From the IMG/VR virus record IMGVR_UViG_3300020112_001619: a DNA stretch of 64,000 nt. One strand, written 5' to 3'. The DNA is from a virus. Of this stretch, positions 3,979 through 56,173 are shown piece by piece; the first letter of the stretch is position 1, and each line of letters starts with the position of its first letter. Under the pieces are notes generated by a model. That model did no database searches. It was not told the DNA's origin and saw only the letters and a program-made list of their open reading frames with translations. Position numbers and translations under genes: made by a program.

Positions 3979-4752
3979 ATGGTGCGTGACCACTTAAATA
4001 ATGAATTTGCATCAATCAAAGAAATGTGCAAATTTTATAATATAGGTTTAACAACTTATAAGAGAAGGCGTGCCAAAGGCATGACTATCGAAGAAATACT
4101 GACTGCAGAAAATCGATTACATTCTGCATGTGAAGATCATTTAGGTAATCATTTTGAATCAAAACAAGATATGTGTGATTATTACAATATATCAAAAGAT
4201 ACACTCAATATTCGATTGAAAAAAGGAATACATTTAAAAGATATTCTTACAAAAAGTCGTAAACGAGCTGTAAAAGATCATTTAGGAAACCCTTATAACA
4301 CCATTTTAGAGATGTGTGAAGCTTATAATATTAGTTATTCTATATATCAAAGCAGACGAAAAGCAAACATGTCGTTAGAAGAAATTTTAACAACACCTGT
4401 TACTAAGCGTGGACAAGTTGATCCTTACGGTAACAAATTTGCAACTGTTGAAGATATGTGTAAAGTATATAATAGAACAATTGATGGTTATGCTCATTGT
4501 AAACAACGAGGTTATTCACAATACGAAGGTTTAGGAATCATTCCTATACTTAGTAGTTTTATCAAAGATTGTGAAATACTCGATATTACAATATTGAACG
4601 TAATAGATAAACGTCCTGACAGACCAAGTGATTTCTATATGTGCTTACATAATGATCACGAAGTAATAATGTCACATAAACAAATCATTGATTATGTAGA
4701 ACAGCATAAATACGAATTGATGCCTGAATATTTAAAACAAAAGGCGGTATGA
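3979..4752 (+). CDS. tandem helix-turn-helix-like (NUMOD1-like) repeat protein, paralog 1 (4 repeats plus conserved C-terminal domain)
   Basis: Repeats of consensus DHLGNxFxSIxxMCxxYNISxxTYxxRxxKGxSLEEILT. C-terminal GIIPIL...FYMCLHNDHEV module is shared with the 5439 and 55424 paralogs. Confidence 0.6.
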   Translation: MVRDHLNNEFASIKEMCKFYNIGLTTYKRRRAKGMTIEEILTAENRLHSACEDHLGNHFESKQDMCDYYNISKDTLNIRLKKGIHLKDILTKSRKRAVKDHLGNPYNTILEMCEAYNISYSIYQSRRKANMSLEEILTTPVTKRGQVDPYGNKFATVEDMCKVYNRTIDGYAHCKQRGYSQYEGLGIIPILSSFIKDCEILDITILNVIDKRPDRPSDFYMCLHNDHEVIMSHKQIIDYVEQHKYELMPEYLKQKAV

Positions 4753-4780
4753 TTATCGCCTCTTAGGAGATGAACAATTT

Positions 4781-5056
4781 ATGACCTTAAACAAACTTAT
4801 CCATAAATGCTTCAAAGATACTGATCGAGAAGCATTAACAAATGATAAAAACATATTAAGTGCTATTTATATGGATTATATGTCAGGGCATAAAGACATA
4901 AATATGCAGAACGCCAAAACTGCAATCTTAAATATCAATAAAATATGTATAGAACAAAGATTTAAACCTTTGTTTTCAGGAAATATGAACTCTAAAGCCG
5001 ATGTCTTAAAGTTCGCAAAAAAAGTCATGGTCGATGACATTAGAGACAATAATTAA
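4781..5056 (+). CDS. hypothetical protein
   Basis: ORF with AGGAG ribosome-binding site. Confidence 0.4.
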   Translation: MTLNKLIHKCFKDTDREALTNDKNILSAIYMDYMSGHKDINMQNAKTAILNINKICIEQRFKPLFSGNMNSKADVLKFAKKVMVDDIRDNN

Positions 5057-5067
5057 GGAGTGCAATT

Positions 5068-5427
5068 ATGAGTCCAGAAGAAGAATTAGAAAAAATTAAA
5101 ATTTCAAGAGATTTATTTATACAGGTAGTAAAAGAAACTTTTAATAAAGAACAATATGAAAAATTATTAGACTTTATTGAAGAATGTCGCAATAAAGATG
5201 GCTGGATTTTACAGTATCATAATGAAACTGTATTAATTTATGATACAGCTACTGACAGATATATTTCATGGTATAAAATCGTACATCTTGGTAGATCTCT
5301 TAACACAAATATCAATACTGTATATGATTTACGATCATTCTTAAAACAGATTATGTACGATGTATTTGATGTCCCCGAACCAGAAGATGAATCAGAAAAT
5401 GAATCAGAAGATAATATGGAAAATTAG
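5068..5427 (+). CDS. hypothetical protein (acidic C-terminus)
   Basis: ORF with AAGGAG ribosome-binding site. Confidence 0.45.
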   Translation: MSPEEELEKIKISRDLFIQVVKETFNKEQYEKLLDFIEECRNKDGWILQYHNETVLIYDTATDRYISWYKIVHLGRSLNTNINTVYDLRSFLKQIMYDVFDVPEPEDESENESEDNMEN

Positions 5428-5438
5428 AGGATTAAAAT

Positions 5439-6383
5439 ATGGCTCATTGTATAGACCACAATGGCATCAAGCATCAATCTGCTCGAGCTATGTGTGAATA
5501 TTATGGTGTTGATTATGACCAATATAGAAATCGTAAAAAATGTTATAATTTAACTATTGAAGAAGCCTTAACCGGCAATTATAAAGAAAAAAGAGATACT
5601 ACGATATTCGATCATAAAGGAAATAAATATAATTCTATTGTTGATATGTGTGAAGCTTATAATATAAACACTAGCACATTCAATTATCATAGAAGACAAG
5701 GAAAATCATTAGAAGAATGTCTTACATTCAGAAATGATACATCTATAACAGATCATGAAGGCAATGTATGGCCTACAAAAAAAGCTATGTGTGAAGCTTA
5801 TGGAATAACTGTTAAAACATATGACAGCCGCATTCGTGACGGTTGGTCGTTAGATAAATGTTTAACAACATCAAGAATATATTCGAATAAAAAAGTAATT
5901 GCACCGAACGGTATAGAATATGAATCAATCACAAAAATGTGTGAAGCATATAATGTAAATACATCAGCTTATTGTAAACGTCGTTCAGAAGGCAAATCTA
6001 TGGAAGAAGCATTAATTCCTATTCGTATAAAAACTGCTACAGATCCATTTGGTCAAATATTTGAATCAACAAAAAGTATGTTAGCATATTATAATATTGA
6101 TAATTCAACATTTTATGGTAGATTTTATAAACATAGATATTCTTTAGCTGAATCATTAGGTATTATACCTATGTTAAACGTTTATACTAGAAATACTGAT
6201 ATGGTGAAAATCACAGACAATCTAATAATTGTAAATTCTATCGATGGATCACCTAAGAAGAAACCAAAATATTTCTTATGTGTATTGAATGATTATGAAG
6301 TTGTATTAGATAGAAATACAATTATTGAATTAGGTTTAGATTATTATCGTAAAAATGTATTACCTTTCAAAAAATCAGCATAA
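5439..6383 (+). CDS. tandem helix-turn-helix-like (NUMOD1-like) repeat protein, paralog 2 (5 repeats plus C-terminal domain)
   Basis: Same DHxGNxYxSIxxMCEAYNIxTSTxxxRRxxGxSLEEALT repeat, then C-terminal GIIPML...KYFLCVLNDYEV. Confidence 0.6.
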   Translation: MAHCIDHNGIKHQSARAMCEYYGVDYDQYRNRKKCYNLTIEEALTGNYKEKRDTTIFDHKGNKYNSIVDMCEAYNINTSTFNYHRRQGKSLEECLTFRNDTSITDHEGNVWPTKKAMCEAYGITVKTYDSRIRDGWSLDKCLTTSRIYSNKKVIAPNGIEYESITKMCEAYNVNTSAYCKRRSEGKSMEEALIPIRIKTATDPFGQIFESTKSMLAYYNIDNSTFYGRFYKHRYSLAESLGIIPMLNVYTRNTDMVKITDNLIIVNSIDGSPKKKPKYFLCVLNDYEVVLDRNTIIELGLDYYRKNVLPFKKSA

Positions 6384-10328: not shown

Positions 10329-11609
10329 ATGGATCAAAATCATGAACCATTAGCATCCAGAATGCGACCTACAAGTCTTGATAATTTTATTGGTCAAAAA
10401 CATATCGTAGGTGAAAACACATTACTTAGACGAATGGTAAAAGCTGATCAATTAAAAAGTATGATACTTTATGGTCCACCTGGTACTGGTAAGACAAGTA
10501 TGGCTAATGTAATAGCTAACACAACAAATGCAGAATTCTGTCAAATTAATGCCACCATATCAAACAAAAAAGAAATGGAAGAAGTTGTAAAATTTGCTAA
10601 AGAACGATTAGAATCAGAAGATAAACAGACCATTTTGTTTATTGATGAAATCCATAGATTCAACAAGGCACAACAGGATTTTCTGTTACCTTATGTTGAA
10701 AATGGCACTCTAATCTTAATAGGAGCAACAACAGAAAATCCATTTTTTGAAGTCAATAAAGCACTTCTATCAAGATCTACAATCTTTGAACTCAAGCCTT
10801 TAACTGTCGAAGATTTAGGTGAGCTTTTAAGATTAGCAATCTCTGATAAAGAACGTGGATATGGTAATTTAGACATTGATATCTCAGATGCTGCAATCAA
10901 TTTTATAGCTGATATGAGTTCAGGTGACATCAGACATGCTTATAACAGTTTGGAATTAGCTGTTATAACAACAACACCTGATGAATCAGGAAAAATCACA
11001 ATTGATTTAGATGTCGCACAAAACTGTATTCAGAAAAAATTATTGAATTATGACAGAGATGGTGATATGCATTACGATACAATCTCTGCATTCATAAAAT
11101 CAATGAGAGGTTCAGATCCTGATGCAGTTATGTACTATCTTGCAAGATTAATTGAATCTGGAGAAGACATTAAATTTATTGCAAGAAGAATTATGATACA
11201 TGCTGCTGAAGATGTAGGCTTAGCCGATCCAATGGCACTTGTGGTTGCAACCAATGCATCACTTGCTGTTGAAAGAATCGGTATGCCTGAAGGACGAATC
11301 ATCTTAGCAGAAGCAGCACTCTATGTTGCCAGAGCACCAAAATCAAATTCAAGCTGTGTAAGTATAGATAATGCGATGAAATTGGTATCATTCGCAGGTG
11401 ACTATGATATACCAGCATATTTGAAAGATGCTCATTATAAGAGTGCTTCAAAATTAGGTCATGGAATTGGCTATAAATATCCACATGATTATCCGAATGG
11501 ATGGGTTGATCAGCAATACCTTCCTGATAAACTTGTAGGATTTAAAGGCAACATTTACGAAAAGAAACCAACAGATGATGCATATTTTAAAAAAGTTAGA
11601 GGCGAGTAA
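10329..11609 (+). CDS. rarA: replication-associated recombination protein A (RarA/MgsA) AAA+ ATPase, copy 1
   Basis: MRPTSLDNFIGQKHIVGENTLLRRMV...LYGPPGTGKTS and Walker B ILFIDEIHRFNKAQQD. C-terminal MgsA_C-like helical domain (YDxxxDxHYDxISAFIKSMRGSDPDA). Confidence 0.85.
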   Translation: MDQNHEPLASRMRPTSLDNFIGQKHIVGENTLLRRMVKADQLKSMILYGPPGTGKTSMANVIANTTNAEFCQINATISNKKEMEEVVKFAKERLESEDKQTILFIDEIHRFNKAQQDFLLPYVENGTLILIGATTENPFFEVNKALLSRSTIFELKPLTVEDLGELLRLAISDKERGYGNLDIDISDAAINFIADMSSGDIRHAYNSLELAVITTTPDESGKITIDLDVAQNCIQKKLLNYDRDGDMHYDTISAFIKSMRGSDPDAVMYYLARLIESGEDIKFIARRIMIHAAEDVGLADPMALVVATNASLAVERIGMPEGRIILAEAALYVARAPKSNSSCVSIDNAMKLVSFAGDYDIPAYLKDAHYKSASKLGHGIGYKYPHDYPNGWVDQQYLPDKLVGFKGNIYEKKPTDDAYFKKVRGE

Positions 11610-11963: not shown

Positions 11964-11975
11964 TAGGAGAATAAT

Positions 11976-12383: not shown

Positions 12384-12397
12384 GAGGATAATAAATT

Positions 12398-12952: not shown

Positions 12953-12977
12953 AAAACTTAAAAAAAGAGGTGTAATT

Positions 12978-16298: not shown

Positions 16299-16330
16299 TT
16301 CATAAATGAGTAAATTCATAGCCTATTTAA

Positions 16331-16366
16331 AATGTGGGAATTAGTAACTGATTTCCACATTTTTTA
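16331..16366 (+). terminator. rho-independent terminator
   Basis: AATGTGG...CCACATT hairpin followed by TTTTT. Confidence 0.6.
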
Positions 16367-16402
16367 GGCTAATTGAACAATTTTACATAGGAGATACTAA
16401 AA

Positions 16403-16846
16403 ATGTACAAAATGATATATGCAAATAATAAAAAAGTGTATTTCGACTATTTTATTGAAGACAAGTTTGAAGCTGGTATTGCTCTTGTTGGTACAGAAGT
16501 AAAAGGCTTAAAAACAAAAGGCTGCAGTATTAAAGAATCATATATTGATATCGTAAATGGCGAAGCATATATCATTCATATGCATATTGCTCATTATGAA
16601 CAAGGTAATATCTTTAACACTGATCCATTTAGAACTCGTAAATTATTGCTTCATAAACAGGAAATCAATAAACTTTTAGCTAAAACAACTGAAAAAGGCT
16701 ATACAATTGTTCCAACATCTGTTTACGAAATAAATGGTAAAATTAAAATCGAAATAGCGTTAGCTAAAGGTAAACACAATTATGACAAGCGAGCTTCTCT
16801 AAAAGAAAAAACAATTAAAAGAGAAATCGAAAAAGAGAGGTATTAA
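16403..16846 (+). CDS. smpB: SsrA-binding protein SmpB
   Basis: Near-canonical SmpB: AGIALVGTEVKGLK, IAHYEQGNIFNTDPFRTRKLLLHKQEINKL, YTIVPTSVY, KIEIALAKGKHNYDKR. Length 147 aa. Confidence 0.9.
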   Translation: MYKMIYANNKKVYFDYFIEDKFEAGIALVGTEVKGLKTKGCSIKESYIDIVNGEAYIIHMHIAHYEQGNIFNTDPFRTRKLLLHKQEINKLLAKTTEKGYTIVPTSVYEINGKIKIEIALAKGKHNYDKRASLKEKTIKREIEKERY

Positions 16847-16849
16847 CAA

Positions 16850-17541: not shown

Positions 17542-19365
17542 ATGCCAAAAATTGCATGTACCGACCATTTAGGTAATGAATTTAAAAGTATTCAGAGTAT
17601 GTGCGATTATTGGCATATATCTCTAACAACTTATTCAAAACGAAAAAAACTTGGTTATTCTTTAGAAGATTGTTTAAATCACAAAAAATTATCAAAAGCA
17701 AAACCTGCTTTTGATCATCTAGGTAATAAATTTATATCAATAGATGCTATGTGTGATCATTATCACATTTCACGTTCAACATTTGAAAACCGCTTAGCTA
17801 GACATTGGCCATTATGTGAAGCTCTTACTAAAGAAAGATACAATAATTATTCTAAAGATAAAATATTGGATCATAAAGGTCAAGTTTTTGCTACTAAAGA
17901 TCAGTTAGCAAGTGCTTACGGTATATCAAGAATGACATTAGATGCCAGATTACGTAAAGGTATGAGTTTAGAAGAAGCTTTAACAACGCCTTTAAGAACC
18001 CACGGCTATACTGATCATTTAGGGAATTATTTTAAAAATCAGCATGAAATGGCTGAATTTTGGCATATTAATGAATCAACACTTGCTTTAAGACTTCGTA
18101 AAGGATTGTCTATAGAAAAAGCTCTTGAGGTTGTATCAATCGAAGTTACTGATCATAAGGGTATAACTTATCATTCTATGACTGCTATGTGTGATGCTTA
18201 CGAAATTTCACGATCAACAGTTGAACGAAGATTAGCTAACAGATGGTCACTTGAAGAAGCACTAACTTATCCATCCACAACACATAAAAAATTCAAAGAT
18301 CATTTAGGTAAAGAGTATAAGACTTTTGGATTAATGTGTAAAGCATGGAACATGCCAGATTCAACAGTTCAAAACAGATTATATAAGTTAGGATATTCAC
18401 TAGAAGATGCTTTAACAAAACCAACAAATACTCAAAATACAGTAGGTAAAACTTGTAAAGATCATTTAGGGAACGAATATCAATCAGTAGCAACTATGTG
18501 TTGTAATTATGGCTTACCTAGAAACGTATTTCATAGGAGAATAAAAGATAGTTGGGATTTAGAAAAAGCATTAACAACACCACCATCACGAGCAAACGGT
18601 CAAGGTAAAGTTATTTACGATCACAAAAAGAATGCTTATTCATCTGTTGGTGAAATGTGCAAAGCTTATGGAATTGATTTTGCAATGTATGGCTCCCGCA
18701 TTCGTCAAGGATGGTCATTAGAAAAAACACTCACAACGCCGCCTGAAGAAATACAAATAGGTAAAAAAGAATGTGTAGATCACAAAGGAAATCATTTTAA
18801 GTCACAAGCAGAAATGATGCGTTTTTGGGGTGTAACAAAAGATCAACTAAGATCAAGAATTGAGCTTGGCTGGACTTTAGCTGAAATCTTAGAGTCTCCT
18901 GCTCATCAAAGTCATAAAAGACCATGTGTTGACCATCTCGGTAAAAAATGGGCATCAAAAGAAGAAATGCTTGCACATTATGGTGTAAGTGGTCCAATTT
19001 TCAATCGAAGATTAAATGTTATGGGCTTATCATTAGAAGAAGCTTTAACAGGACATTCTCTTCATGCAAATCAGATGACTGATCCTTTAGGAAATTTCTT
19101 TGAATCAGTTTCTGATATGTGCGACGCTTGGGACACACCAACAGCCACATTTTACCATTGGTATAACAAATTATATCCAAACAACTTAAGAATGGCTCTC
19201 GTAAGACCAAAAACAAATTGGTCATATAAAGATGTAAAAATCATTAAAACTATTAATAAAAAGTTCTATGAGGTAATGATAAACAATCACACAGCAATAT
19301 GGACTCAAGAACAAATATGTGATTATTACATTAATAACTTTAAACCACATATCGAACCTAAATAG
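17542..19365 (+). CDS. tandem helix-turn-helix-like (NUMOD1-like) repeat protein, paralog 3 (about 11 repeats; 607 aa)
   Basis: Eleven consecutive units DH(L/K)GNxFxSxxxMCxxYxISRSTxxxRLxxGWSLEEALTxP. Distinct C-terminal domain (IWTQEQICDYY) shared with the 22763 paralog. Stop lies 10 nt upstream of the sigma factor start. Confidence 0.65.
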   Translation: MPKIACTDHLGNEFKSIQSMCDYWHISLTTYSKRKKLGYSLEDCLNHKKLSKAKPAFDHLGNKFISIDAMCDHYHISRSTFENRLARHWPLCEALTKERYNNYSKDKILDHKGQVFATKDQLASAYGISRMTLDARLRKGMSLEEALTTPLRTHGYTDHLGNYFKNQHEMAEFWHINESTLALRLRKGLSIEKALEVVSIEVTDHKGITYHSMTAMCDAYEISRSTVERRLANRWSLEEALTYPSTTHKKFKDHLGKEYKTFGLMCKAWNMPDSTVQNRLYKLGYSLEDALTKPTNTQNTVGKTCKDHLGNEYQSVATMCCNYGLPRNVFHRRIKDSWDLEKALTTPPSRANGQGKVIYDHKKNAYSSVGEMCKAYGIDFAMYGSRIRQGWSLEKTLTTPPEEIQIGKKECVDHKGNHFKSQAEMMRFWGVTKDQLRSRIELGWTLAEILESPAHQSHKRPCVDHLGKKWASKEEMLAHYGVSGPIFNRRLNVMGLSLEEALTGHSLHANQMTDPLGNFFESVSDMCDAWDTPTATFYHWYNKLYPNNLRMALVRPKTNWSYKDVKIIKTINKKFYEVMINNHTAIWTQEQICDYYINNFKPHIEPK

Positions 19366-19375: not shown

Positions 19376-20530
19376 ATGAATACAACAACGAAAAATAAGA
19401 CAAAACAAACTAAAAATACATCATTGATTGATGATCCATTAGATTCTTCTATTTCATCATCTGATACATTAGATGAAGAACCTGAAGATGCAGACGTTGA
19501 ACCAGATATGGCTGATCTTGAAAGTATTGACGATTCACCTGATGCAGAGGCAGATGTTGCAAATTTAATAGCTTTATATGAAGCAAGCGACAAAGCATTA
19601 GATCCAGTAACACAATACTTAAGAGAAATTGGTACAATACCTCTTCTTTCAAAAGAAGATGAACAAATTTTAGGTAAACAAATAAGTGATCTAAAAGATG
19701 CAATTGCCGAACGTGATGAAATTTTAGAAAAACCTAAATTAACAAAAAAAGATGAAAAGAGATTAGAAAAGTTAAAAGTAACAATTTCAGAATGCACAAT
19801 TGCTAAAAACAAATTATGCGAATCAAATCTGAAATTAGTTGTTAGTATCGCAAAACGATATAATTTCAGATCGTTATCTGAATTTCTAGACATCATACAA
19901 GAAGGTAATTTAGGTCTTATCAAAGCAAGTGAAAAATTTGACTATACAAGAGGATTCAAATTTAGTACATATGCAACCTGGTGGATAAGACAAAGCATCA
20001 CAAGATCTATGGCTGAAACAGGAAGACTTATCAGATTACCTGTTCATATATCTGAAGATATCAATAGAATCAAAAGAGCGAAACGCAATATATTAGCCAA
20101 GACTAATAAAGAAGCTACAATTGAAGATATTGCAGCAGAAGTCAATTTACCTATTGATAAAGTAAAAGACCTTATTAGACTTGAACAGGAACCTATGTCA
20201 CTAAATATGACCGTAGGTGAAGACAATGATTCTACAGTAGGCGATTTTATACCTGATGATACATTGCAAACACCTGAAGAAAAAATGGCAGAACAAAATA
20301 TTCATGATGTGTTATTTGATGTATTCAAACAAGCAAAATTATCAGATAAAGAAATTGACATTATTTGTAGAAGAAACGGTATCGACCGACCTGATAAACA
20401 AACACTTGAAGAAATTGGCAAAGATTATAATATCACCAGAGAACGAGTGCGACAAATAGAAGCCAAAGTCGTTAAAAAATTGAGACATCCAAAATATGCA
20501 AAAATATTAAAAGAATTACTTGAACCGTAA
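19376..20530 (+). CDS. RNA polymerase sigma-70 family factor (primary-like, regions 1.2-4)
   Basis: Region 1.2 YLREIGTIPLLSKEDE. Region 2 DIIQEGNLGLIKASEKFDYTRGFKFSTYATWWIRQSI. Region 4.2 TLEEIGKDYNITRERVRQIEAKVVKKLRHP. ATG at 19376 with AGGAGA ribosome-binding site (ORF track start 19319 rejected). Confidence 0.85.
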   Translation: MNTTTKNKTKQTKNTSLIDDPLDSSISSSDTLDEEPEDADVEPDMADLESIDDSPDAEADVANLIALYEASDKALDPVTQYLREIGTIPLLSKEDEQILGKQISDLKDAIAERDEILEKPKLTKKDEKRLEKLKVTISECTIAKNKLCESNLKLVVSIAKRYNFRSLSEFLDIIQEGNLGLIKASEKFDYTRGFKFSTYATWWIRQSITRSMAETGRLIRLPVHISEDINRIKRAKRNILAKTNKEATIEDIAAEVNLPIDKVKDLIRLEQEPMSLNMTVGEDNDSTVGDFIPDDTLQTPEEKMAEQNIHDVLFDVFKQAKLSDKEIDIICRRNGIDRPDKQTLEEIGKDYNITRERVRQIEAKVVKKLRHPKYAKILKELLEP

Positions 20531-20596
20531 TTCATCAGATTGGAGGTTGGTATAAATATCAATCTCCAATACTTATTTAAAAAGGACAATAAAAAA

Positions 20597-20839
20597 ATGT
20601 TATCTGAAGAAATCATATTAAATAATTTCACAAAAGATGAAATAGATCAAATGTTAAAAATACTGCCTAAAGATGAACAAATTGTTATGCGAATGTATTT
20701 TGGAATAACATGTGATAAGCTTACTTTAGAGGAAATTTCAAATATGATAAAAATACCGGTCTGGCGATTAGAACAAGCAAAACTAAACAGCTTGATCGTA
20801 TTGGATGAAACATATGACATAGCAAACAGAATCGCATAA
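20597..20839 (+). CDS. small stand-alone sigma-70 region-4-like helix-turn-helix protein (80 aa)
   Basis: LPKDEQIVMRMYFGI...LTLEEISNMIKIPVWRLEQAKLNSL resembles ECF/sigma region 4. ATG at 20597. Follows a hairpin terminator at about 20531-20575. Confidence 0.45.
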   Translation: MLSEEIILNNFTKDEIDQMLKILPKDEQIVMRMYFGITCDKLTLEEISNMIKIPVWRLEQAKLNSLIVLDETYDIANRIA

Positions 20840-22762: not shown

Positions 22763-23905
22763 ATGACACCACATACAGCAAAACAACATGAAGACCATTT
22801 AGGTAATGTATATCCATCTTTTGCAGACATGTGTAAAGCATATAATAAACCTAGCAATACTGTAAGAAACAGACTTGATAGAAATTGGACATTAGAGCAA
22901 GCATTAACAATTGATAATAAAAATACAGCTGTTAAAGTTAAACCTATCAAAATATGGACTGATCATTTAGGTAATGAATTTCCAAGTGTTCGAGCTATGG
23001 CTGAACATTATGGGATTACTGAAAAAATATTTTGGTCAAGAAAAAGAATACTAAATTGGCCACTAGAAAAAATCTTGACAACACCAATTCAAGATATGGA
23101 CGCTCCGGCAAATGCCATACCAATTGTTTGTAATGGTATTGAATTTAAATCAGTAAATGCATTATGTAAATACTATTGTATACCAAGAACAACTTTTAAA
23201 TTAAGGTTACAACAAGGATATACACCAGATGAAGCCGTAAATATTAAACCGAAAAAAACAAAAGGTTTGGTAAAAACAAAAATAACAGATCCCTGGGGAA
23301 AAGAATTTCCATCTTTGGCTGCATTATGTAAAGAATATCATGTCACTAAAGATTTAGTGAGATCACGATTAGATTTAGGCTGGACTATGGAAAAAATTTT
23401 AACAAATCCTCAAGTCATAGATCCACACAAACCATGTATCGGACCTGACGGAAAACAATACGATGGTTTTAAAATTATGGCAGAATCTTTTGGATTATCT
23501 GAATCAACACTCAGAGGTCGATTAGCTCAAGGATATTCATTAGAAGATGCTATTTATAATTGGGAAAATAACATATTTCATCCTCAAACAGATCATCTTG
23601 GGAATAAATTTAATGCTACAGCTGATATGATGCTTTACTGGAATATTTCAAATAGTTCATATTGGGCTTATATGAAAAGACGAAATATTGTAAATCCAAC
23701 AGATAAAGATAAAGCAAAAGTATTAGACGTTATCAAGCCAAAAAAGAAATTTGCAGATATTACAATTGTAAAAAAAGTTGCAAAAAATTATTATGAGATA
23801 TGTAAAGATAATAAAAATTATATTTGGTCACATGACCAAATATGGAATTATTATCGAAGCACTATCAATATAGTATTTGAGAAAGGAGACTTATGCAATA
23901 CGTAA
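22763..23905 (+). CDS. tandem helix-turn-helix-like (NUMOD1-like) repeat protein, paralog 4 (about 7 repeats)
   Basis: Repeats DHLGNxxPSxxxMCKxYxxxxxTxxxRLxxxWTLEQALT. C-terminal NYIWSHDQIWNYY is related to the 17542 paralog. Confidence 0.6.
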   Translation: MTPHTAKQHEDHLGNVYPSFADMCKAYNKPSNTVRNRLDRNWTLEQALTIDNKNTAVKVKPIKIWTDHLGNEFPSVRAMAEHYGITEKIFWSRKRILNWPLEKILTTPIQDMDAPANAIPIVCNGIEFKSVNALCKYYCIPRTTFKLRLQQGYTPDEAVNIKPKKTKGLVKTKITDPWGKEFPSLAALCKEYHVTKDLVRSRLDLGWTMEKILTNPQVIDPHKPCIGPDGKQYDGFKIMAESFGLSESTLRGRLAQGYSLEDAIYNWENNIFHPQTDHLGNKFNATADMMLYWNISNSSYWAYMKRRNIVNPTDKDKAKVLDVIKPKKKFADITIVKKVAKNYYEICKDNKNYIWSHDQIWNYYRSTINIVFEKGDLCNT

Positions 23906-24859: not shown

Positions 24860-24876
24860 ATTGAGAGGTGTTTATT

Positions 24877-25974
24877 ATGAAAAAATCAAAAATCATGACA
24901 AGCTTTTTGATTGCAACGCTTAGCATGACAATGTTGCTTGTCGGATGTACAAAAGAAACAGTAGAAGAACCAAAATCAAATGTTGAGATTGTCAATGAAG
25001 TATCAGATATGTCTGAATCATTAACTGATCTCATTGATAAGTATGATGATGGCAATGGCGTTCATACTGATTTAACAGAAGAAATGGATCTTCCATCACT
25101 TAATTCGATTCCTGAATATTCTGGAACCGCTTATGTTGAATTGAATAACAACATCCCATATATTCAGATTAGTGAACCAGAAGATGGTAAAGAATATGGC
25201 GAATTTGAACTATATTCAGCACTTGATGATTTAGGAAGATGTACTTCAACATTTGTATGTATCAAAGCAGACCATATGCCAACAGAAGAACGTGGTCCAA
25301 TCGGTAGCGTAAAACCTACAGGCTGGCATACAATTAAATACAATGATTTAATTGACGGTAATTATCTTTACAATCGTTGCCACCTGATTGGTTATCAATT
25401 AACAGGACAAAATGCAAATCCTTGCAACCTTATTACAGGTACAAGATATTTGAATGTAATCGGTATGCTACCTTTTGAAAATCAAATTGCTGATTTTATG
25501 AAGGCAAATCCTGACACGCATGTTCTCTATCGTGTAGAACCACTATTTAAAGATGATGAACTTGTAGCAAGAGGCATTTTGATGCAGGCAAAATCTCTTG
25601 AAGATAATGGTGAAGGATTAAGCTTCTGTGTATTCTGTTATAATGTTCAGCCAGGAATTGAAATTGATTATGCGACTGGTGATTCAAAAGAAAATCCTGA
25701 CATTGTTGCTAATGATTATGATTATAATTCGTCAGAAGTAATTGATGAAGATAATGTATCTGAATTAGAAGCTGACACATCCGTCACAGAAGTAGCTGAA
25801 GACGTTGAAAATATTTATATTGTAAATGCAACAAACGGAACAGTTCATAAATATGACTGTCCAAATCTTCCAGCAACACAAAACAGACATGAATTTGCAT
25901 CATATGATGAAGCAATCGCTGAATCAATCAACATTCATGGAGAAGAAAAATTATGTGGTAATTGTATGAAATAA
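24877..25974 (+). CDS. secreted lipoprotein, DNA/RNA non-specific endonuclease-like (EndA/NucA-type)
   Basis: Signal peptide with lipobox LLVGC. Nuclease-like motif NRCHLIGYQLTG...NLITGTRYLN (RGH-type). ATG at 24877 (ORF track GTG at 24868 lies within the ribosome-binding site). Confidence 0.55.
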   Translation: MKKSKIMTSFLIATLSMTMLLVGCTKETVEEPKSNVEIVNEVSDMSESLTDLIDKYDDGNGVHTDLTEEMDLPSLNSIPEYSGTAYVELNNNIPYIQISEPEDGKEYGEFELYSALDDLGRCTSTFVCIKADHMPTEERGPIGSVKPTGWHTIKYNDLIDGNYLYNRCHLIGYQLTGQNANPCNLITGTRYLNVIGMLPFENQIADFMKANPDTHVLYRVEPLFKDDELVARGILMQAKSLEDNGEGLSFCVFCYNVQPGIEIDYATGDSKENPDIVANDYDYNSSEVIDEDNVSELEADTSVTEVAEDVENIYIVNATNGTVHKYDCPNLPATQNRHEFASYDEAIAESINIHGEEKLCGNCMK

Positions 25975-28037: not shown

Positions 28038-29417
28038 ATGATTGAACCATTAGCTTCTATGATGCGACCACAAACTTTAGACGAAGTATTTGGTCAAGAA
28101 CACATTTTATCTTCTGGCAGATTGCTTAGAAGAATGATTGAGGCCGACATATTGTCATCAATTATTTTGTATGGTCCACCAGGTACCGGTAAAACTACAA
28201 TTGCTACAATAATTGCTAACACAACTAATTGTGAATTTGAAGCAATTAATGCAACAACAGCTGGCAAAGCTGATATGGTAAAAATAACGGACAAAGCAAT
28301 CAAAAATCTAAAAGAGAACAATAAACGAACAATTATGTTCATCGATGAAATACATAGATTCAACAAAGCACAGCAGGATTATCTATTACCATTTGTCGAA
28401 AAAGGTATCGTTATTCTCATTGGTGCTACAACCGAAAATCCATATTTTGAAATTAATGGTGCATTGTTATCAAGATCTAAGATTTTTGAATTACATCCAT
28501 TGGACAAATCAGCTATGAGCCAAATTATAGACAGAGCAATTTTGAAACTAAACATAGAAGCAAAAAATATAAATATTGCTTATGATATTGTATTAACACC
28601 AGATGCCAAAGATTTCTTTATCAATATTGCAGATGGTGATGCAAGACAGATTTTAAATGCTCTCGATCTAGCATACCAAACAACTGAATATGATGACGCC
28701 GGTATTATGACGATCAACTTAGAAGTTGCTGAAGAATGTATTCAGAAAAAAATCAAACAATATGATAAAAATGGTGACAACCATTATGATTCTATATCAG
28801 CATATATTGAATCTATCAAACATTCTGAAGTAGACGCAGCACTTTACTATTTGGCAAGAATGCTCGATAGAGGTGAAGATCCGAAATATATAGCACGACA
28901 ATTAATTAAGATTGCATCAAGAGATATTGGAACTGCTGATCCATATGCTTTAACATTATGCGTGAGCACATTTTTAGCAGTAGAACGAGTAGGTATGCCT
29001 GACTGTAAATTCGGTCTTGCTGAAGCCACTGTTTATACATCACTCGTTCCAAAATCTAACACAGTAACATCTGCGTTAGAACTTGCAATGGAAGATGCTT
29101 CAAATCTATCTAACATTGAGATACCAACAACTCTTAAAGATGAATCTTACAAATCAGCATGGAAATTAGGTCACGGTGGCGTATCTGATGTATTTGCATC
29201 ACCTATTAATTACGATGGCTTTGAATGTATGCCTGAAGATTTAGTAGGTAAACGATACTATTATCCAAGTGATTTAGGTAAAGAAATCGACATGAAAAAG
29301 TACAATGATTGGAGATTAAAAGTAAAAGATGCTGTTAATCAATATATCAGCGAACATCCTGAAGATTTAATCCCACAATCACCGAACAGACCGATTAATC
29401 CAAATACACAAAAATAA
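28038..29417 (+). CDS. rarA: RarA/MgsA AAA+ ATPase, copy 2 (diverged paralog of 10329..11609)
   Basis: MRPQTLDEVFGQEHILSSGRLLRRMI...LYGPPGTGKTT, IMFIDEIHRFNKAQQD, and C-terminal YDKNGDNHYDSISAYIESIKHSEVDAALYYLARM. Confidence 0.85.
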   Translation: MIEPLASMMRPQTLDEVFGQEHILSSGRLLRRMIEADILSSIILYGPPGTGKTTIATIIANTTNCEFEAINATTAGKADMVKITDKAIKNLKENNKRTIMFIDEIHRFNKAQQDYLLPFVEKGIVILIGATTENPYFEINGALLSRSKIFELHPLDKSAMSQIIDRAILKLNIEAKNINIAYDIVLTPDAKDFFINIADGDARQILNALDLAYQTTEYDDAGIMTINLEVAEECIQKKIKQYDKNGDNHYDSISAYIESIKHSEVDAALYYLARMLDRGEDPKYIARQLIKIASRDIGTADPYALTLCVSTFLAVERVGMPDCKFGLAEATVYTSLVPKSNTVTSALELAMEDASNLSNIEIPTTLKDESYKSAWKLGHGGVSDVFASPINYDGFECMPEDLVGKRYYYPSDLGKEIDMKKYNDWRLKVKDAVNQYISEHPEDLIPQSPNRPINPNTQK

Positions 29418-39750: not shown

Positions 39751-40124
39751 GGGCTTGCAAAGGTTTCGACTGGGTATTATAAGTATCTCAAGCATGTAGA
39801 GGATGATGGACACCTCTTAAATCCGACATCAAAGAATAATCGCTAACGATTATGAAGAGCTCTGCGCAGCCTAGTAGCGCCAGCTAGTGTAAACTAGCCG
39901 TCAACTCATATGAGTATCACCGCTGTATCTCATATGGGCAATAGTAGCGGTTAAGCGATGAGTGAACTGAGATGGAACTCACCGACGAAAACTCCGGCGT
40001 CTTAGTGTGTGTATAGAAGCGTGTTGGTTTGCTAATTACAGGCACTATAAAGGGATAACCAAATAAACATGTAGAAAAAGATATGGAGATATTTAGGACA
40101 GGGGTTCGACTCCCCTCAGGTCCA
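39751..40124 (+). ncRNA. ssrA: tmRNA (SsrA), standard one-piece form; predicted tag peptide ANDYEELCAA
   Basis: 5' GGGCUUG-CAAAG-GUUUCGACUGGG matches the tmRNA 5' consensus. The 3' T-arm AGGGGTTCGACTCCCCT plus CAGGTCC pairs 7/7 with the 5' GGGCTTG (two G-U pairs). Tag reading frame is GCT AAC GAT TAT GAA GAG CTC TGC GCA GCC TAG TAG at 39842-39877, preceded by AATAATC as in the E. coli AAUAGUC resume context. Confidence 0.8.
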
Positions 40125-40216
40125 CTAGCCAAAGTAATTTGGTGAACAATTTTATAAAGTCCATAAGGTCTTTATAGATACTTATGGCATATCCCCCCCC
40201 AATAGAGACAAATATT

Positions 40217-46826: not shown

Positions 46827-49607
46827 ATGAGGATAAAAAAATTAGAACATAATGAAAAAACATATGATGATCTAAGACCATATATTCTAAGAAAAGAAAA
46901 TTGTTGCGTTGTAAATCCTTGTGGTTCAGGAAAAAGCACAATTATAGCTTCCATCATTGAAGAATTTTATGAATTAGGTATTATTGTCATCACAAAACAA
47001 GCAAATGCAAAAGCTTATTATTACGAAAAATGCCCAATATTCGAACAACAGAATATACCAGTTATAACATACAATAGATTACATGATCTATATAAAAAAG
47101 ATAAATTAAAGAGCTTGAAAAACATCAAAATCTGTATTTTTGATGAAGCTCATTATATAGGAGCAAATAGTTGGTATGATTCTGTTACTGAATTATTAAA
47201 AATAACAGAAGCTACAGCAATCGGTGTTACAGCAACACCACAACGATACGAAGATCAAGGATCAGATCGATCAATTATTGATTTCTTTTCAGGTAATTCT
47301 GTAGGAAATTATACAGCAAAAGACCTTCAGAGAAAAGGTGTATTTATTGAGCCTGAGTACATTATTACATTGGCATCACTTGATACTGAAATCAATAAAC
47401 GAATTGATAAACTGAATGAAATAGATGATCTTACGGATAAAGAACGTGAAACTTATATAAGTCGATTAAATGAATTACAGGATAACTGGGCTGAAAAAGA
47501 ATGTCCTAAAGTAGTTATGTCAAAAGTATTAGATGATTACATGTATAGACCAAATGGAAATAAAATACTTGTATTTTCTAAAAATATTGAAGCAATTGCT
47601 AAAGACATGAAATATGTTAAAGATATTCTTGAATCAATATATCCTGACAAAAAGATTGGACTATATGAATACACTCATTTTAGCAGCGAATCTGTCTTAC
47701 AAGAATTTTTAACAAATGATACTAACTATATCAACGTTATATTTTCTGTTAATAAAATCTGTGAAACAATTCATATTCCAGATCTAAACGTACTAATATT
47801 TTTAAGAAGTTCTTATTCAAACAGGATCATTACACAACAGGCTGGCCGAGTTAATGATATTAATAATCCATACAAAAGTTTAATTCTCGATATGGTAGAC
47901 AATTTATCAAAATTTGGCAAAAAGAATAATCTTGATTCATTAGAAAATATTCAGAAAACTGTTAAAAAAGAACAGCAAGAAAATAAAACAACTGTACGAT
48001 TAAATCTATCTTATATGTATGGTTCTATTGGGTTGTTTAATAAAATTGACAGTTTAACAAAAAAATATCAGCTATATGATTATATGGGTGCAACAGGTAC
48101 AATCACTCAGTTATGTACTATTTTCAGAAAAGACAAAGATGAAGTTATGAAACTGATCAAAGATAATCAGTTATCAGTGTATGATGCATTAGACACTGTA
48201 CCTAGTCAAAGAAAATGGTCAAATGATATGTTAAATGATGATTCATATGATTTACTTACAAATATGGATTATACATTAACACCTGAAGATAACGAATTAG
48301 TCGAAAAATTTTACCCATACATTCAAGATATTGCAAAAACAAAAAATTGTACAGATGAAGATATTATTGGAAATGCTGCATTATATCTATGTAATATTGC
48401 ACATAAATACAATACTGAAAACATAACAACAAGTCAAAACATGTATTTCAGAAACAGTATTGCTAATTTCATAGTGAGATCTATGCGAAAAATGTATGAT
48501 CATAATGATATGATAGAAGATTCACTATCAGATGTCGTATCATCTGGCGAGTATGTATCAAAATATGCTGAACTTTCGGAATTAAAAGATATCATATTTG
48601 AATTATTAAATACTTTAACTGAAAAAGAACATCGTGTTATTGCTATGAGATTTAATATCTATGGTAATGGACCACAATCATTATTCAGTGCAGGACGTAT
48701 ACTTGGTGATGTATCTAGAGAACGAATAAGACAAATAGAAGCAAAAGCTATACGAAAATTACGACATCCTAGTAGATCAAGAAAATTAAAAGGTTTCTTA
48801 AATGGCGAAGAATTATCAGAAATTGAACCATATACTTATCTAACATATATAGGATCAGAAAATTTACCTGAAGCAAATGCTGAAGTATTCAGATGGATTA
48901 ATGAACATATCAATATGGCTATTTTGAAATACGGTCCTAATTATAAAGAAGAGTTTACCATCGTTCAAAAATCTGATACAAAATGTGAACCTGTTACAGA
49001 AAAAGAGTCAGTAGAATCTTTAAACAAACGCTTAAATAAAGTAGTTCTTAAAACTGCTGAAAAAAGAGTTGGTATTCGTATTAATAGACCAGTTAAATAC
49101 GACAAAATCACAATAAAAAAGTATCGAGGTGATCAATATCAAATTGGAAAGACACAAGCAATTGACAACATACAGTCTGTTACAACATATGAATACATTG
49201 ACGCTATTGACGCCACAGTTGCTTCAACATTATCAAATCTGCTGAATAACAATGAGAATCCTTTCTGGATTCATGACGCATTATTCAAACCTTTTGAAGA
49301 TGTAAAATATAAACATATCTTACATCCTGCTGTAAAAGAGATTTTAAAACAAAATCAAATAATTTCACCTGCATTCTTAATAACAAAGACAAGAGATGAA
49401 ATTCACGAATTATTAACAGTAGGTGCAAGACTTAAAGCGGCTCAATGCTACAAAGTAGATGCTTTATTATCAGATGATGATATTTGGTTTATGAAAAACT
49501 TCGGTGAAATCATAAAAATATTAGAAGGAAGCGTTGAAACATTAGAAGCAATCAAAAGAGAAGCATTATCACTTTTATATGATCAAAACATCGAAATTGT
49601 TTGTTAG
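46827..49607 (+). CDS. fusion protein: SF2 helicase-like N-terminal domain plus sigma-70 region 2/region 4 domains plus about 290-aa unknown C-terminal extension
   Basis: Helicase motifs [26 protein letters not shown] are paralogous to the 1996 protein. Sigma region 2-like [18 protein letters not shown]...[17 protein letters not shown]. Region 4.2 [53 protein letters not shown] nearly matches the RpoD consensus. Confidence 0.7.
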
Positions 49608-53438: not shown

Positions 53439-53975
53439 ATGGCAAATTACAAAATTGAAAATGTAGATATCTACAATAACCACAACGATGTATATATCAT
53501 ACCTGATTATATCTATGATGTTTTAAAAAATATCAATGATAGACAATCATCAGAAAACAACACTAAATATATTTTTAAAAATAGAATTATAAGTGAAACA
53601 GACGAAAAATATGACTCAATATATCCAAGTACAACACCTAGCTATATTTGTTTTGAATCAAATCCAAATAGCCAATGTGATATCACTTTATGGACATATG
53701 ACGATGGACATATTCATATAAACGACGGCTGTTATCCTATGGTTATTCGTTATGTGTTCGAATTATTAGGTATTCAAGAAGCATGTATGGAAGGTCATTT
53801 TGACATGACTAGAGGACCTATTACATTAAATGATATTTTAGAAATTACAAAATATTATGATTCAAGTTCCATCACAGGTCCAAAATCATATAGTGATTTA
53901 TTAGATGATTATTGCACTAATCTTAAATTACTTAGTGATGGAATTATTGAAGAAGGTGAACGATACATACATTAG
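53439..53975 (+). CDS. hypothetical protein
   Basis: ORF with GGAG ribosome-binding site. Confidence 0.45.
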   Translation: MANYKIENVDIYNNHNDVYIIPDYIYDVLKNINDRQSSENNTKYIFKNRIISETDEKYDSIYPSTTPSYICFESNPNSQCDITLWTYDDGHIHINDGCYPMVIRYVFELLGIQEACMEGHFDMTRGPITLNDILEITKYYDSSSITGPKSYSDLLDDYCTNLKLLSDGIIEEGERYIH

Positions 53976-54122
53976 ATTAATAATGGAACAACTGATAAAA
54001 CTGAATTGCAGACATTATTAAATCAGATCACACCTTTATTATCTGATATTGAATGTAAAATCAATCAACTTAAATCAATTTCAAATAAAATTTACACACT
54101 TGAATAAAAGGAAAATCAAATA

Positions 54123-55061
54123 ATGCAGATTAAAACTTGGAGAGATCCATATGATGCTGGTTTTTCACCAACAACACCTACAGAAATAACCATCAATCCG
54201 GGTTTAACTGTATTAGTTGGTTGTAACGGTGCTGGTAAAACCACTTTATTACATAATATAAAAGATGTTTGTCGTGATTCAAACACACCTTGTCATCTAT
54301 TTGATAATTTATCTGACGGAGGTAATAACGCCTGGGGATTTTTACTAGGTGGTGGCACTGAATTTGAAGGTGACGATTATGGACTTGGTGGATTATTATT
54401 TTCATCATCTGAAGGTGAAAGTATTAAAGTCAACATTGGCCGCCAAAGCACAAAATATAAAGAGTTTTTAAGAACTGGCTATTTCAAAAATAAAAGCCAT
54501 AATTTTGCAAAAATATTTCATGATGATATGCCTGATATTGTAAACAGTAATGTCAGAATTTTATTATTTGATGCTACTGATTCTGGTATGAGTATTGACG
54601 CTATCTGTGAAATTAAAGCTCTTTTCAAATTAGTTTTAGAAGATGCTGCAAAATTAAATTTAGAAACTTACATCATAATTTCTGCAAATGAATACGAATT
54701 ATGTAGAAATGAAAACTGTTTTGACGTAAATACCGGTAAATACGTAACCTTTAAAGACTACGAAGATTATCGCAAATTTATAATTGGTAGTCGTAAGAAA
54801 AAAGAAAAACGTATTGAAAAACAGCAAATTTGGCGTGACAAAAAGAAACAGCAAGAAATCAAAACATACGAAAAGTTAAAAGCTGAAACTATTGAAAAAC
54901 TAAATAAATTAAAAGCAAAATACATTAATAATCATGAATCTTATAGCATAAAATGGCAAATGGACGATGTTGTTCGCAAATTTGACGATTTTATTAGACA
55001 CGCTAGATTTAACGATTTTGAAAGTATTGATATCAATCAATTTATGGAGGATAAAGAATGA
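54123..55061 (+). CDS. compact ABC-type ATPase (AAA_21-like) with Lys/Glu-rich coiled-coil tail
   Basis: Walker A GCNGAGKTT. Signature-like LFSSSEGES. Walker B and D-loop ILLFDATDSGMS. C-terminal KKKEKRIEKQQIWRDKKKQQEIK. Confidence 0.55.
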   Translation: MQIKTWRDPYDAGFSPTTPTEITINPGLTVLVGCNGAGKTTLLHNIKDVCRDSNTPCHLFDNLSDGGNNAWGFLLGGGTEFEGDDYGLGGLLFSSSEGESIKVNIGRQSTKYKEFLRTGYFKNKSHNFAKIFHDDMPDIVNSNVRILLFDATDSGMSIDAICEIKALFKLVLEDAAKLNLETYIIISANEYELCRNENCFDVNTGKYVTFKDYEDYRKFIIGSRKKKEKRIEKQQIWRDKKKQQEIKTYEKLKAETIEKLNKLKAKYINNHESYSIKWQMDDVVRKFDDFIRHARFNDFESIDINQFMEDKE

Positions 55062-55351
55062 TATTAGCAGCTGCAATTAAATATCATATCGACGCTACAG
55101 ACTCTGACGTAGTTTTATGCGGAGCCAGACACGGTGACGTGTTTGTACAATTAAAGCAATTAGGTTTTGAAGCCAGAAAAGGCTACACAGAAATTGAACA
55201 AGGTTTTATCGATCATAAAAACAACTTCTTGACCAGAGAAGAAGCATATGAGCATGCAAAAATGTGTGGTCAGATATGTGAAAAAATTCAATACGAAAGA
55301 GAAGAAAAAGGATTATTTGGAAAACAAATGATCTCAGAAGATTTATGGTGA
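55058..55351 (+). CDS. hypothetical protein (translationally coupled to ATPase)
   Basis: ATGA overlap with the upstream gene. Confidence 0.4.
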   Translation: MILAAAIKYHIDATDSDVVLCGARHGDVFVQLKQLGFEARKGYTEIEQGFIDHKNNFLTREEAYEHAKMCGQICEKIQYEREEKGLFGKQMISEDLW

Positions 55352-55423
55352 TTTAGATTAAAAAAATTACAAAATAATTTTCAAATATTTAAACTGCTTA
55401 AAATTACATAGAAGGGTGTTAAT

Positions 55424-56173
55424 ATGATAAAAGATCACGAAGGACATGAATTCGAATCTATAACCGATAAATGTAAAGTGTATAATATATCACGAACGAC
55501 ATATAGAAATCGTATCAAAAAAGGTATGTCAGAAAAAGAAGCATTAACAACACCTGTTAAACGAAAACAACAATCTATAAATTATAACGGTGTTCATTAC
55601 AATAAATTATCAACATTTTTAAAAGCGTACAATTTATCAATGAGTGATTATTATAATGCTAAAAATCTTGGTTGGTCATTAGACGAACTTGTCCATAAAT
55701 CAAAATCATTTGATTGTGTTGACCCATATGGTAACACTTTTAATAATATGCAATCGTTATTAAAGCATTATAATATAAGTAAAAAACAATACTATTATTG
55801 GTTAGATAAAGGTAAAACATTAAAAGAAATAATAGATTTACAGTATTCAAAGCATCATATATGTGATCCATTTAACAATGAATTTGATTCTGTAGACCTT
55901 ATGTACAAATGTTACAATTTACCAAAACACATATATCAATCAAGAAAAGACAGAAATCTACCAATATCTCAAGTATTAGGTATTGTACCAATGCCTTCAA
56001 AATTACATCAAATCAATAATTCTGATTATTACATACTCAAAACCGATGATTACGGTGAAATCATAATACCTTTTGAAACATTAGAGAAATACTATATTTC
56101 AAAATTTGATCAATCAAAACTTGATAAGTCTTATATGATAAATAATAACGAAGAACTTAATAAGATTCAGTAA
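55424..56173 (+). CDS. tandem helix-turn-helix-like (NUMOD1-like) repeat protein, paralog 5 (4 repeats plus C-terminal domain)
   Basis: DHEGHEFESITDKCKVYNISRTTYRNRIKKGMSEKEALT and three further degenerate units. C-terminal GIVPMP...DYYILKTDDYGEI. Confidence 0.55.
   Translation: MIKDHEGHEFESITDKCKVYNISRTTYRNRIKKGMSEKEALTTPVKRKQQSINYNGVHYNKLSTFLKAYNLSMSDYYNAKNLGWSLDELVHKSKSFDCVDPYGNTFNNMQSLLKHYNISKKQYYYWLDKGKTLKEIIDLQYSKHHICDPFNNEFDSVDLMYKCYNLPKHIYQSRKDRNLPISQVLGIVPMPSKLHQINNSDYYILKTDDYGEIIIPFETLEKYYISKFDQSKLDKSYMINNNEELNKIQ

Follow-up and report, generated by a model that had tools for sequence, protein, structure and literature searches.

Five genes of a large uncultured phage, here called A to E, encode proteins built from tandem arrays of small helix-turn-helix-type units followed by a C-terminal module. 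They lie on the 64,000-nucleotide (nt) stretch of IMG/VR virus record IMGVR_UViG_3300020112_001619 that we analysed, hereafter 'the window'. We consider it somewhat probable that A–E are nuclease-free, sequence-specific DNA-binding arrays, in which case their most likely role would be the site-specific regulation or occlusion of DNA of the phage or its host. We infer that the proteins bind DNA, that the second helix of each unit reads it and that the outcome is regulatory. Sequence-specific reading is suggested by the predicted fold of the unit, its scores against helix-turn-helix families in Pfam, its match to one half of a nuclease family profile (phrog_3377), the domains to which the array is fused in relatives, the placement of variable residues, the way orthologs keep those residues, the lack of a nuclease domain and a protein isoelectric point (pI) of 8.3–9.25.

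The five open reading frames (ORFs), all on the + strand, were located exactly by a first-pass annotation made from the sequence alone (Table 1). With a unit profile built from excised units and run on the six-frame translation of the whole window, we obtained matches in A–E only (E-values from 1e-217 to 1.6e-70), the next ORF scoring at E 0.003. According to this profile the five proteins carry 4, 5, 11, 6 and 4 units, respectively, or 30 in total, of approximately 48–51 amino acids (aa) each. The annotation had counted 4, 5, about 11, about 7 and 4 units (31 in total), which is right for A, B, C and E but not for D, nor consequently for the sum. Similarly, it had rightly placed the first unit near the N-terminus, but at residues 3–8, whereas we find it to start at residues 4–11. 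Each gene is preceded by a Shine-Dalgarno-like sequence, and the base composition of A–E (GC 0.26–0.33; GC at third codon positions, GC3, 0.15–0.19) falls inside the spread of the other window genes (mean GC 0.313, mean GC3 0.201). Tandem Repeats Finder detected no repeat array between positions 17000 and 24500, a segment that covers C and D, and the best-conserved DNA segments of the repeats are 60–79% identical; the repeats are therefore old at the DNA level. The paralogs are old as well, since pairwise identity among the five proteins is only 25–35%.

No nuclease family was detected in the five proteins in Pfam, PHROGs, NCBIfam or PADLOC, in agreement with the earlier impression from the sequence, and the latter two databases returned nothing meaningful of any kind. 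A hidden or frameshifted nuclease beside the array genes was sought in the flanking ORFs (4781-5056, 5068-5427, 22445-22744, 23893-24216, 24242-24859, 55058-55351 and 56265-56789), none of which contains a nuclease domain.

Table 1. Array genes, their C-terminal modules and other features of the window.
Feature	Position (nt)	Strand	Description
Paralog A	3979..4752	+	257 aa; 4 units, starting at nt 3988, 4135, 4276, 4420; then C-terminal module
C-terminal three-strand-plus-helix module of A	4546..4749 (aa 190-257)	+	Aligned with the modules of B, C, D, E and relatives; fold by analogy with the B model
Paralog B	5439..6383	+	314 aa; 5 units, starting at nt 5454, 5610, 5751, 5907, 6042; then C-terminal module
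Last unit and C-terminal module of B	6033..6380 (aa 199-314)	+	Predicted as one compact domain
Paralog C	17542..19365	+	607 aa; 11 units, starting at nt 17563, 17713, 17869, 18013, 18151, 18298, 18460, 18619, 18778, 18931, 19081; then C-terminal module, nt 19207-19362
Paralog D	22763..23905	+	380 aa; 6 units, starting at nt 22793, 22961, 23132, 23288, 23447, 23591; C-terminal module, nt 23717-23902
Paralog E	55424..56173	+	249 aa; 4 units, starting at nt 55433, 55586, 55721, 55865; shorter C-terminal module, nt 55991-56170
Sigma-70 family gene	19376..20530	+	Regions 1.2, 2, 3 and 4 (Pfam); ATG 10 nt after the C stop (19365)
99-aa ORF	20540..20839	+	Weak matches to sigma region 4
926-aa helicase protein	46827..49607	+	Internal Sigma70_r4 at residues 593-647
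SmpB gene	16403..16846	+	Pfam 187 bits
tmRNA	39751..40125	+	Tag ANDYEELCAA
MgsA/RarA-like AAA+ ATPase, first copy	10329..11609	+	Paralogous to the second copy
MgsA/RarA-like AAA+ ATPase, second copy	28038..29417	+	Paralogous to the first copy
Endonuclea_NS_2 gene	24868..25974	+	DNA/RNA non-specific endonuclease, 80.6 bits
Hairpin	3932..3956		Between helicase and A; 9-bp GC-rich stem, TAGGGCTGG...CCAGCCCTA

An AlphaFold2 model of C, computed from an alignment of 16 relatives, has a mean pLDDT of 78 and a pTM of 0.29. In 11/11 units it predicts two short strands, forming a hairpin over DHxGNxF, followed by helices of about 7, 9 and 6 residues, and thus gives every unit the helix-turn-helix that the first-pass annotation had expected. 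The superhelical solenoid that it had raised for the 11-repeat protein is not what the model gives: 6/10 inter-unit linkers fall below a pLDDT of 50 and the other four are less confident than the units. Since both linker confidence and pTM are low, the arrangement is that of beads on a string as far as the model goes; the 44–58 aa range that holds the bulk of unit spacings likewise speaks against a solenoid.

After the last unit of C, the model places three strands and a helix (residues 565–599, pLDDT about 89). In B, the last unit is degenerate, with DPxG replacing DHxG and GIIP replacing ALT.P, and together with the three-strand-plus-helix module that follows it is modelled as one compact domain (pLDDT 91, pTM 0.82). 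The last unit of A is similarly degenerate, with DPYG where DHxG is expected, and its C-terminal module comes directly after. The annotation had distinguished two conserved C-terminal modules. We found that these two types align with each other via intermediates such as P0133, and that profiles built from either type retrieve 54 and 65 matches with a union of 66; because both profiles recover nearly the same proteins, we treat them as one module family. No invariant polar residue suggestive of catalysis is seen in its alignment.

The residues of the unit fall into a scaffold and a variable set. Over 1,324 units sampled family-wide, D3 (99%), G6 (98%), L40 (96%), R29 (91%), H4 (90%), M15 (87%) and C16 (78%) are strongly conserved, and G33 lies within the same 78–99% range. 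Such anchor positions had been described as invariant; in the window-only alignment, which covers 29 of the 30 units, not a single column is invariant or even reaches 90%. The accompanying claim that the intervening positions vary strongly was borne out by the family-wide alignment, where positions 2, 8, 10, 12, 13, 17, 22, 23, 24, 27, 28, 31, 32 and 42 of the unit all have an entropy above 3 bits. When mapped onto the AlphaFold2 model of C, the hypervariable positions concentrate on strand 2 of the hairpin and on the turn and helix 2, the expected site of a recognition helix. The start-to-start distance between neighbouring units (1,836 pairs) has a median of 51 aa and a 5th–95th percentile range of 46–64, and the repeat is thus not of fixed length. 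Apart from the question of DNA reading, the scaffold includes conserved Cys and His: H4 and C16 are accompanied by a C at position 1 in 43% of units, paralog C contains 15 Cys and 30 His, and the conserved Cys/His of each unit may form a metal or redox site.

Comparison of orthologs indicates that individual units are maintained as such. The only close relative available, locus L001, carries a syntenic ortholog of C (P0002) that is 69% identical and whose unit starts coincide with those of C within 1 residue; a further 11-unit relative, P0005, is 56% identical. When units of equal index are compared between C and these two proteins, 57% and 48%, respectively, of the 14 hypervariable residues are common, as opposed to 12–13% for units of different index. 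For the seven positions in the turn and helix 2, the equal-index figures rise to 68% and 64%. The pattern is uneven along the array, the helix-2 positions of units 6–9 being 86–100% identical among C orthologs and units 1–3 having diverged. Paralog D has colinear 6-unit relatives (P0338, P0082, P0067 and P0127; 359–365 aa, 34–43% identical), in which the same-index signal is 0.41–0.22 against 0.13 and helix 2 of unit 4 is identical in two of them. Because orthologs of both C and D keep their units, we conclude from these comparisons that unit number, order, spacing and the putative reading residues are under constraint, as would be expected of a composite binding site but not of decaying relics. 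No relative of B above 38% identity was found among 5.8 billion proteins.

We surveyed the architecture of 261 family proteins, taken from the top-scoring matches and therefore biased toward long arrays. These relatives carry 4–17 units (median 8). No C-terminal extension follows the array in 107/261, and the three-strand-plus-helix module of A–E follows it in 66/261. The other C-terminal modules are one of about 140–190 aa with the motif D..(I/V)E.DGxQH, of PD-(D/E)xK type (29/261), a zinc-ribbon-like module (21/261) and a module with an RPDLL..YDK.NPTG.Y ending (14/261). A nuclease domain is present in about 12% of the surveyed relatives; homologs are thus not uniformly fused to a nuclease that had been missed in the window, the circumstance under which the first-pass annotation would have been overturned. 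In P0029 the C-terminal module is DUF2726 (36.2 bits, cut-off 24.7), which we take to be a member of the PD-(D/E)xK clan; in P0314 a GIY-YIG domain follows the array (23.9 bits, cut-off 22.6); and in P0146 the array comes after NUMOD4 (39.3 bits, cut-off 23.4), an HNH_3 match just under its cut-off and a weak NUMOD1 match. Judging from these fusions, the array is appended elsewhere to nucleases from three superfamilies, a behaviour typical of the modular DNA-binding regions in homing endonucleases. A fourth kind of fusion is P0353, a sigma-70 factor that runs straight into six units after its region 4; its region 2 is above the Pfam cut-off and its regions 2–4 align with the sigma factor of the window at E 1e-8. 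Similar helix-turn-helix repeats are also seen in Vpf497 (L170 1426-2919), an uncharacterised protein encoded by f237 and VfO3K6, two filamentous phages of Vibrio parahaemolyticus O3:K6, in which a weak match to T5orf172/MUG113 (GIY-YIG-like) follows the repeats at the C-terminus.

These same fusions with HNH, GIY-YIG and PD-(D/E)xK domains are what makes an origin among free-standing homing endonucleases worth weighing: A–E might be relics or domesticated derivatives that have lost the nuclease and persist either as drifting remnants or as site blockers. In the latter version they may occupy the phage's own homing sites and so shield them from the nuclease-bearing relatives of co-infecting phages. 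The location of the genes is compatible with such mobility, as they sit between conserved genes of replication and nucleotide metabolism (helicase, NrdD, SIR2, ClpX-like and sigma) at places that differ among related phages, and so is the lack of an ortholog of B at more than 38% identity. Nevertheless, we regard this explanation as rather unlikely. The base composition of A–E is fully phage-like, the paralogs are old at 25–35% identity, and in the survey, with the bias stated above, the nuclease-free state is that of the majority. Furthermore, all five ORFs are intact and the colinear orthologs of C and D keep both unit number and unit-specific residues, which points to purifying selection for a function and not to decay.

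Sequence databases place the five proteins in families that have been catalogued without a function. All of them match PHROG 1065, a phage family without functional annotation (C, E 4.7e-76; D, 3.9e-27; B, 1.7e-15; A, 2.2e-13; E, 2.1e-9), beside which PHROG 201 and PHROG 3377 are named as families containing these proteins. To phrog_3377, annotated as 'HNH endonuclease', the window proteins match over only about 90–196 of the 196 profile positions, that is, over its non-catalytic C-terminal half (A, positions 102–191, E 6.1e-14; E, E 1.1e-11). This half-match, together with the relatives that carry nuclease domains beside the array, upholds the connection to homing endonucleases drawn in the first-pass annotation. 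In Pfam, C passes the cut-off for PVL_ORF50 (PF07768; 44.2 bits, cut-off 27), A (15.5) and B (13.9) remain below it, and D and E give no match at E up to 1; the window units cover only the first half of the 116-position profile, and precomputed PVL_ORF50 matches are listed for many relatives. The units score against many DNA-binding helix-turn-helix families of Pfam, some above threshold: C exceeds the cut-offs for HTH_psq (39.3 bits, cut-off 20.4), DUF4250 and Phage_CI_repr, and D that for HTH_36 (32 bits, cut-off 25). A, B and E lie under every Pfam cut-off.

A search of the Protein Data Bank (PDB) by sequence yielded no related solved structure, the only hits being spurious ones to designed toroids and to Vps28. 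The latter is a weak match of the unit profile to the C-terminal domain of yeast Vps28 (2caz_B, E 0.004; NKHFQSIEAFCDTYNITASNAITRLERG), and Pfam VPS28 is also found among the sub-threshold matches of relatives; the resemblance probably reflects convergence of a small helical motif.

The family is large. Searched with the unit profile, a set of 1.84 billion representatives at 50% identity contains 8,561 matching clusters at E<=1e-3, 4,141 at E<=1e-10 and 1,736 at E<=1e-30. A search with C returned at least 455 clusters at 90% identity, which are unnamed or 'hypothetical', a few being labelled Lachnospiraceae or Clostridiales. GenBank phages contain no DNA near-identical to the window, and tblastn searches against them with C or with a canonical 9-unit relative gave 6 and 4 records, respectively, all weak and confined to Vpf497 of Vibrio f237/VfO3K6, the Bacillus phages IEBH and BMBtp1 and one Geobacillus phage; the family is thus nearly absent from cultured phages. 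In the literature on PVL_ORF50, on NUMOD1 or IENR1 and on tandem helix-turn-helix arrays we found no account of the function or the long-array architecture. What is known already is the type of module, a helix-turn-helix as in homing endonucleases, and the catalogue family (PHROG 1065, Pfam PF07768). Several aspects seem not to have been described before: the stand-alone arrays of 4–17 units, how large the family is, its occurrence in several copies within a lineage of large gut-type phages, the conservation of variable residues unit by unit, and the range of fusion partners, which spans three nuclease families and a sigma factor.

The unit is probably a distant relative of the helix-turn-helix of I-TevI and NUMOD1, and would work in a similar way. 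The first-pass annotation had called the unit NUMOD1-like. A direct match to NUMOD1 is seen only in relative P0146, where it is weak (E 0.0059) and lies outside the repeat units; precomputed NUMOD1 matches are listed for four other relatives, with strength and position not given. For I-TevI, the sequence used as query matches 1i3j_A (residues 130–245, E 4e-77). An hhalign comparison sets unit positions 6–33 in register with I-TevI residues 208–235, its helix-turn-helix subdomain, along the pattern G..F......a..f.IS.....R. Matches to the Pfam family I-TevI_DNA-bd (PF20987, cut-off 27) are sub-threshold and restricted to relatives, namely P0314 (26.1 bits), P0367, P0287, P0065 and Vpf497.

Set beside I-TevI (PDB 1I3J), NUMOD1 and I-TevI_DNA-bd, the arrays share a strand followed by a short helix-turn-helix, the consensus D/G..F.S...a...(Y/F).IS.....R, flexible linkers and use as the targeting arm of nucleases. 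They differ in lacking a nuclease, in having 4–11 units (up to 17 in relatives), and in a third helix (GWSLEEALT) and a DHxGN hairpin; a homing endonuclease, by comparison, has no more than a few NUMOD-type modules. PF07768 and PHROGs 1065, 201 and 3377 contain the window proteins statistically and are catalogue entries without an assigned function. With transcription activator-like effector (TALE) repeats and C2H2 zinc-finger arrays the likeness is one of organisation: tandem small units, a conserved scaffold with few hypervariable positions, nuclease fusions, and a unit number and order that vary between paralogs of the arrays and are kept between orthologs. The arrays differ from TALE-like solenoids in their 44–58 aa spacing and in that no rigid superhelix is predicted (pTM 0.29), and their reading of DNA is putative. 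Sigma-70 region 4, as well as phage activators that partner with sigma factors such as T4 MotA, read promoter-proximal DNA through a helix-turn-helix. The units have no sequence membership in region 4; P0353 adds its six units after that region, and C stands 10 nt upstream of a sigma gene.

If A–E do bind DNA, we envisage the following mechanism. Each unit would fold independently into a beta-hairpin and a three-helix bundle of the helix-turn-helix type, in which DHxGN of the hairpin, MC..Y of helix 1, R of helix 2 and GWSLEEALT of the turn and helix 3 serve as scaffold. The hypervariable residues of strand 2 and of the turn and helix 2 would contact DNA, like the helix-turn-helix of the I-TevI DNA-binding domain, and flexible linkers of 2–15 residues would let successive units follow the duplex. 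A long, asymmetric composite target would thereby be set by how many units there are, in what order, and with which recognition residues. The C-terminal module would cap the last, degenerate unit; since conserved polar residues hinting at catalysis are absent from it, we take it to be a domain for capping, dimerisation or partner binding. Without a nuclease, the possible outputs would be activation or repression of transcription, or site occlusion.

The window has a GC content of 31% and is a one-strand block of a large uncultured phage; it comes from a 70-kb contig, and relatives of its helicase are found on contigs of up to 377 kb. Its genes include a DEAD-type helicase, NrdD and its activase, SIR2, two MgsA-like AAA+ proteins, dUTPase, thymidylate synthase, guanylate kinase, a PIF1 helicase, a ClpX-like ATPase, SmpB, tmRNA and a complete sigma-70 factor. 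A starts 51 nt after the helicase and B ends 58 nt before NrdD. As had been noted from the sequence, C is the member that ends 10 nt before the sigma-70 gene, and the two are probably co-expressed. In L001 the ortholog of C occupies the equivalent site, and the gene directly after it runs off the contig end. The spacing of C and sigma, together with the sigma–array fusion P0353, gives a hint, by a thin link, of promoter-proximal action of C.

More distant phages of the lineage, whose helicase is 50–57% identical, carry 1–3 family members per 15–20 kb at differing places: in L166 one lies ahead of the helicase and another behind it, L168 has two after the helicase, L162 has two, and in L174 the ClpX-like gene is flanked by one on each side. 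Since only three weak 2-unit matches were found in 80 IMG/VR loci with a related NrdD, we conclude from these gene contents that the multi-copy expansion is a trait of this phage lineage, with stable members (C and D) and a fast-turnover member (B). Loci picked by the sigma gene contained host-like sigma genes and were uninformative.

The genomic setting bears on the possibility that the arrays are targeting subunits which recruit a separately encoded enzyme via the C-terminal module, either the Endonuclea_NS_2 protein or RNA polymerase with the phage sigma factor. The module is discrete, confidently predicted and without catalytic-looking residues, it recurs in 66/261 relatives, and both candidate partners are at hand: the Endonuclea_NS_2 gene lies two genes downstream of D, sigma lies 10 nt from C, and the sigma–array fusion exists. 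We nonetheless hold this possibility to be distinctly improbable, because 107/261 relatives have no C-terminal extension at all and adjacency to sigma is not kept beyond the closest relative. The Endonuclea_NS_2 protein itself could be an enzyme of host-DNA degradation or a partner acting in trans.

Several observations weigh against the interpretation of A–E as sequence-specific DNA-binding arrays. DNA binding by the window proteins is a prediction, and searches gave neither a related solved structure nor a significant fold match. The net charge of a single unit is near zero. NUMOD1 (PF07453, cut-off 22.8 bits) gave no match to A–E at E<=1 or to 29 single units at E<=0.1, so that the NUMOD1 label of the first-pass annotation is not supported, and the in-register alignment with I-TevI is statistically weak (E 0.0084, probability 4.7%). 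It had also proposed a search for iterated sites matching the repeats; in 4.5 kb of intergenic sequence of the window, the only iterated DNA motif is the ribosome-binding site ATAGGAGA, and no candidate target emerged. As for sigma, C-type genes in L162, L163 and L175 have no sigma gene directly after them, and a widely conserved C–sigma adjacency was therefore rejected; the suggested link rests on one fusion (P0353) and on adjacency in two close phages. Finally, architectures that combine an array with a PD-(D/E)xK domain can also be RNA-directed, an example being the FASTK/RAP proteins (review PMC12687428).

One may ask whether the arrays are RNA-binding or protein-scaffold repeats rather than binders of double-stranded DNA, for which one could cite the empty fold searches, the indirect nature of the case for DNA, the RNA- and translation-related functions of the phage (tmRNA, SmpB and sigma) and the analogy with FASTK/RAP proteins as helical-repeat RNA binders ending in PD-(D/E)xK-type domains (PMC12687428); we consider this very unlikely, as the units match DNA-binding helix-turn-helix families of Pfam, some above threshold, take the place of or add to the DNA-binding part of homing-type nucleases of the HNH and GIY-YIG kinds, and are predicted as discrete hairpin-plus-helix domains on flexible linkers, not as a continuous helical solenoid.

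A number of further features were seen near the array genes, elsewhere in the window and in related phages. The 99-aa ORF directly after sigma-70 weakly matches region 4 of sigma factors (Pfam E 2.8e-4; phrog_351 'RNA polymerase sigma factor'), and the 926-aa protein is an unusual fusion of a DEAD/ResIII helicase core with an internal Sigma70_r4 (44 bits). The tmRNA and SmpB form a complete trans-translation pair, and SmpB lies two genes upstream of C, likewise in L001. In L162, 1.7 kb without a credible ORF (11672-13442) separate the C-type array gene from SmpB and may hold a non-coding RNA such as tmRNA, or an intron. The window encodes two paralogous MgsA/RarA-like AAA+ ATPases. A scan of the window for promoters and terminators stayed at chance level; its terminator part flagged the hairpin between helicase and A on the - strand only. 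In L168, a reverse transcriptase gene (RVT_1; 16141-17397) about 1.3 kb downstream of the two array genes is followed by a 1.5-kb gap without called genes (17398-18908) and could belong to a retroelement or a diversity-generating element. Between its helicase and an array gene, L166 encodes an AcrVA2-like protein (4640-5842; Pfam PF26125).

In this study we have described a family of tandem helix-turn-helix arrays in the lineage of a large phage. A bolder proposal, which we regard as doubtful, is that the unit is a natural programmable DNA-reading module, in which residues of strand 2 and helix 2 specify a short word and 4–17 units spell a long address, making it a third natural scaffold of the zinc-finger/TALE type, one that would offer thousands of existing specificities. 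Under that equally speculative extension, sets of addresses would serve the huge phages of gut Firmicutes as bespoke regulators, and the arrays would be taken over as targeting arms by mobile nucleases and even by a sigma factor. If the arrays do bind DNA, the family would constitute a very extensive and almost unstudied source of proteins that bind long DNA sites, and would bear on how huge phages regulate their own or host genes, on how homing-type nucleases acquire targets and, possibly, on protein engineering. Should A–E turn out to be ordinary regulators, the value would be smaller, consisting of a hypothesis on what PHROG 1065 and Pfam PVL_ORF50 do and of a gene family that marks this phage lineage.

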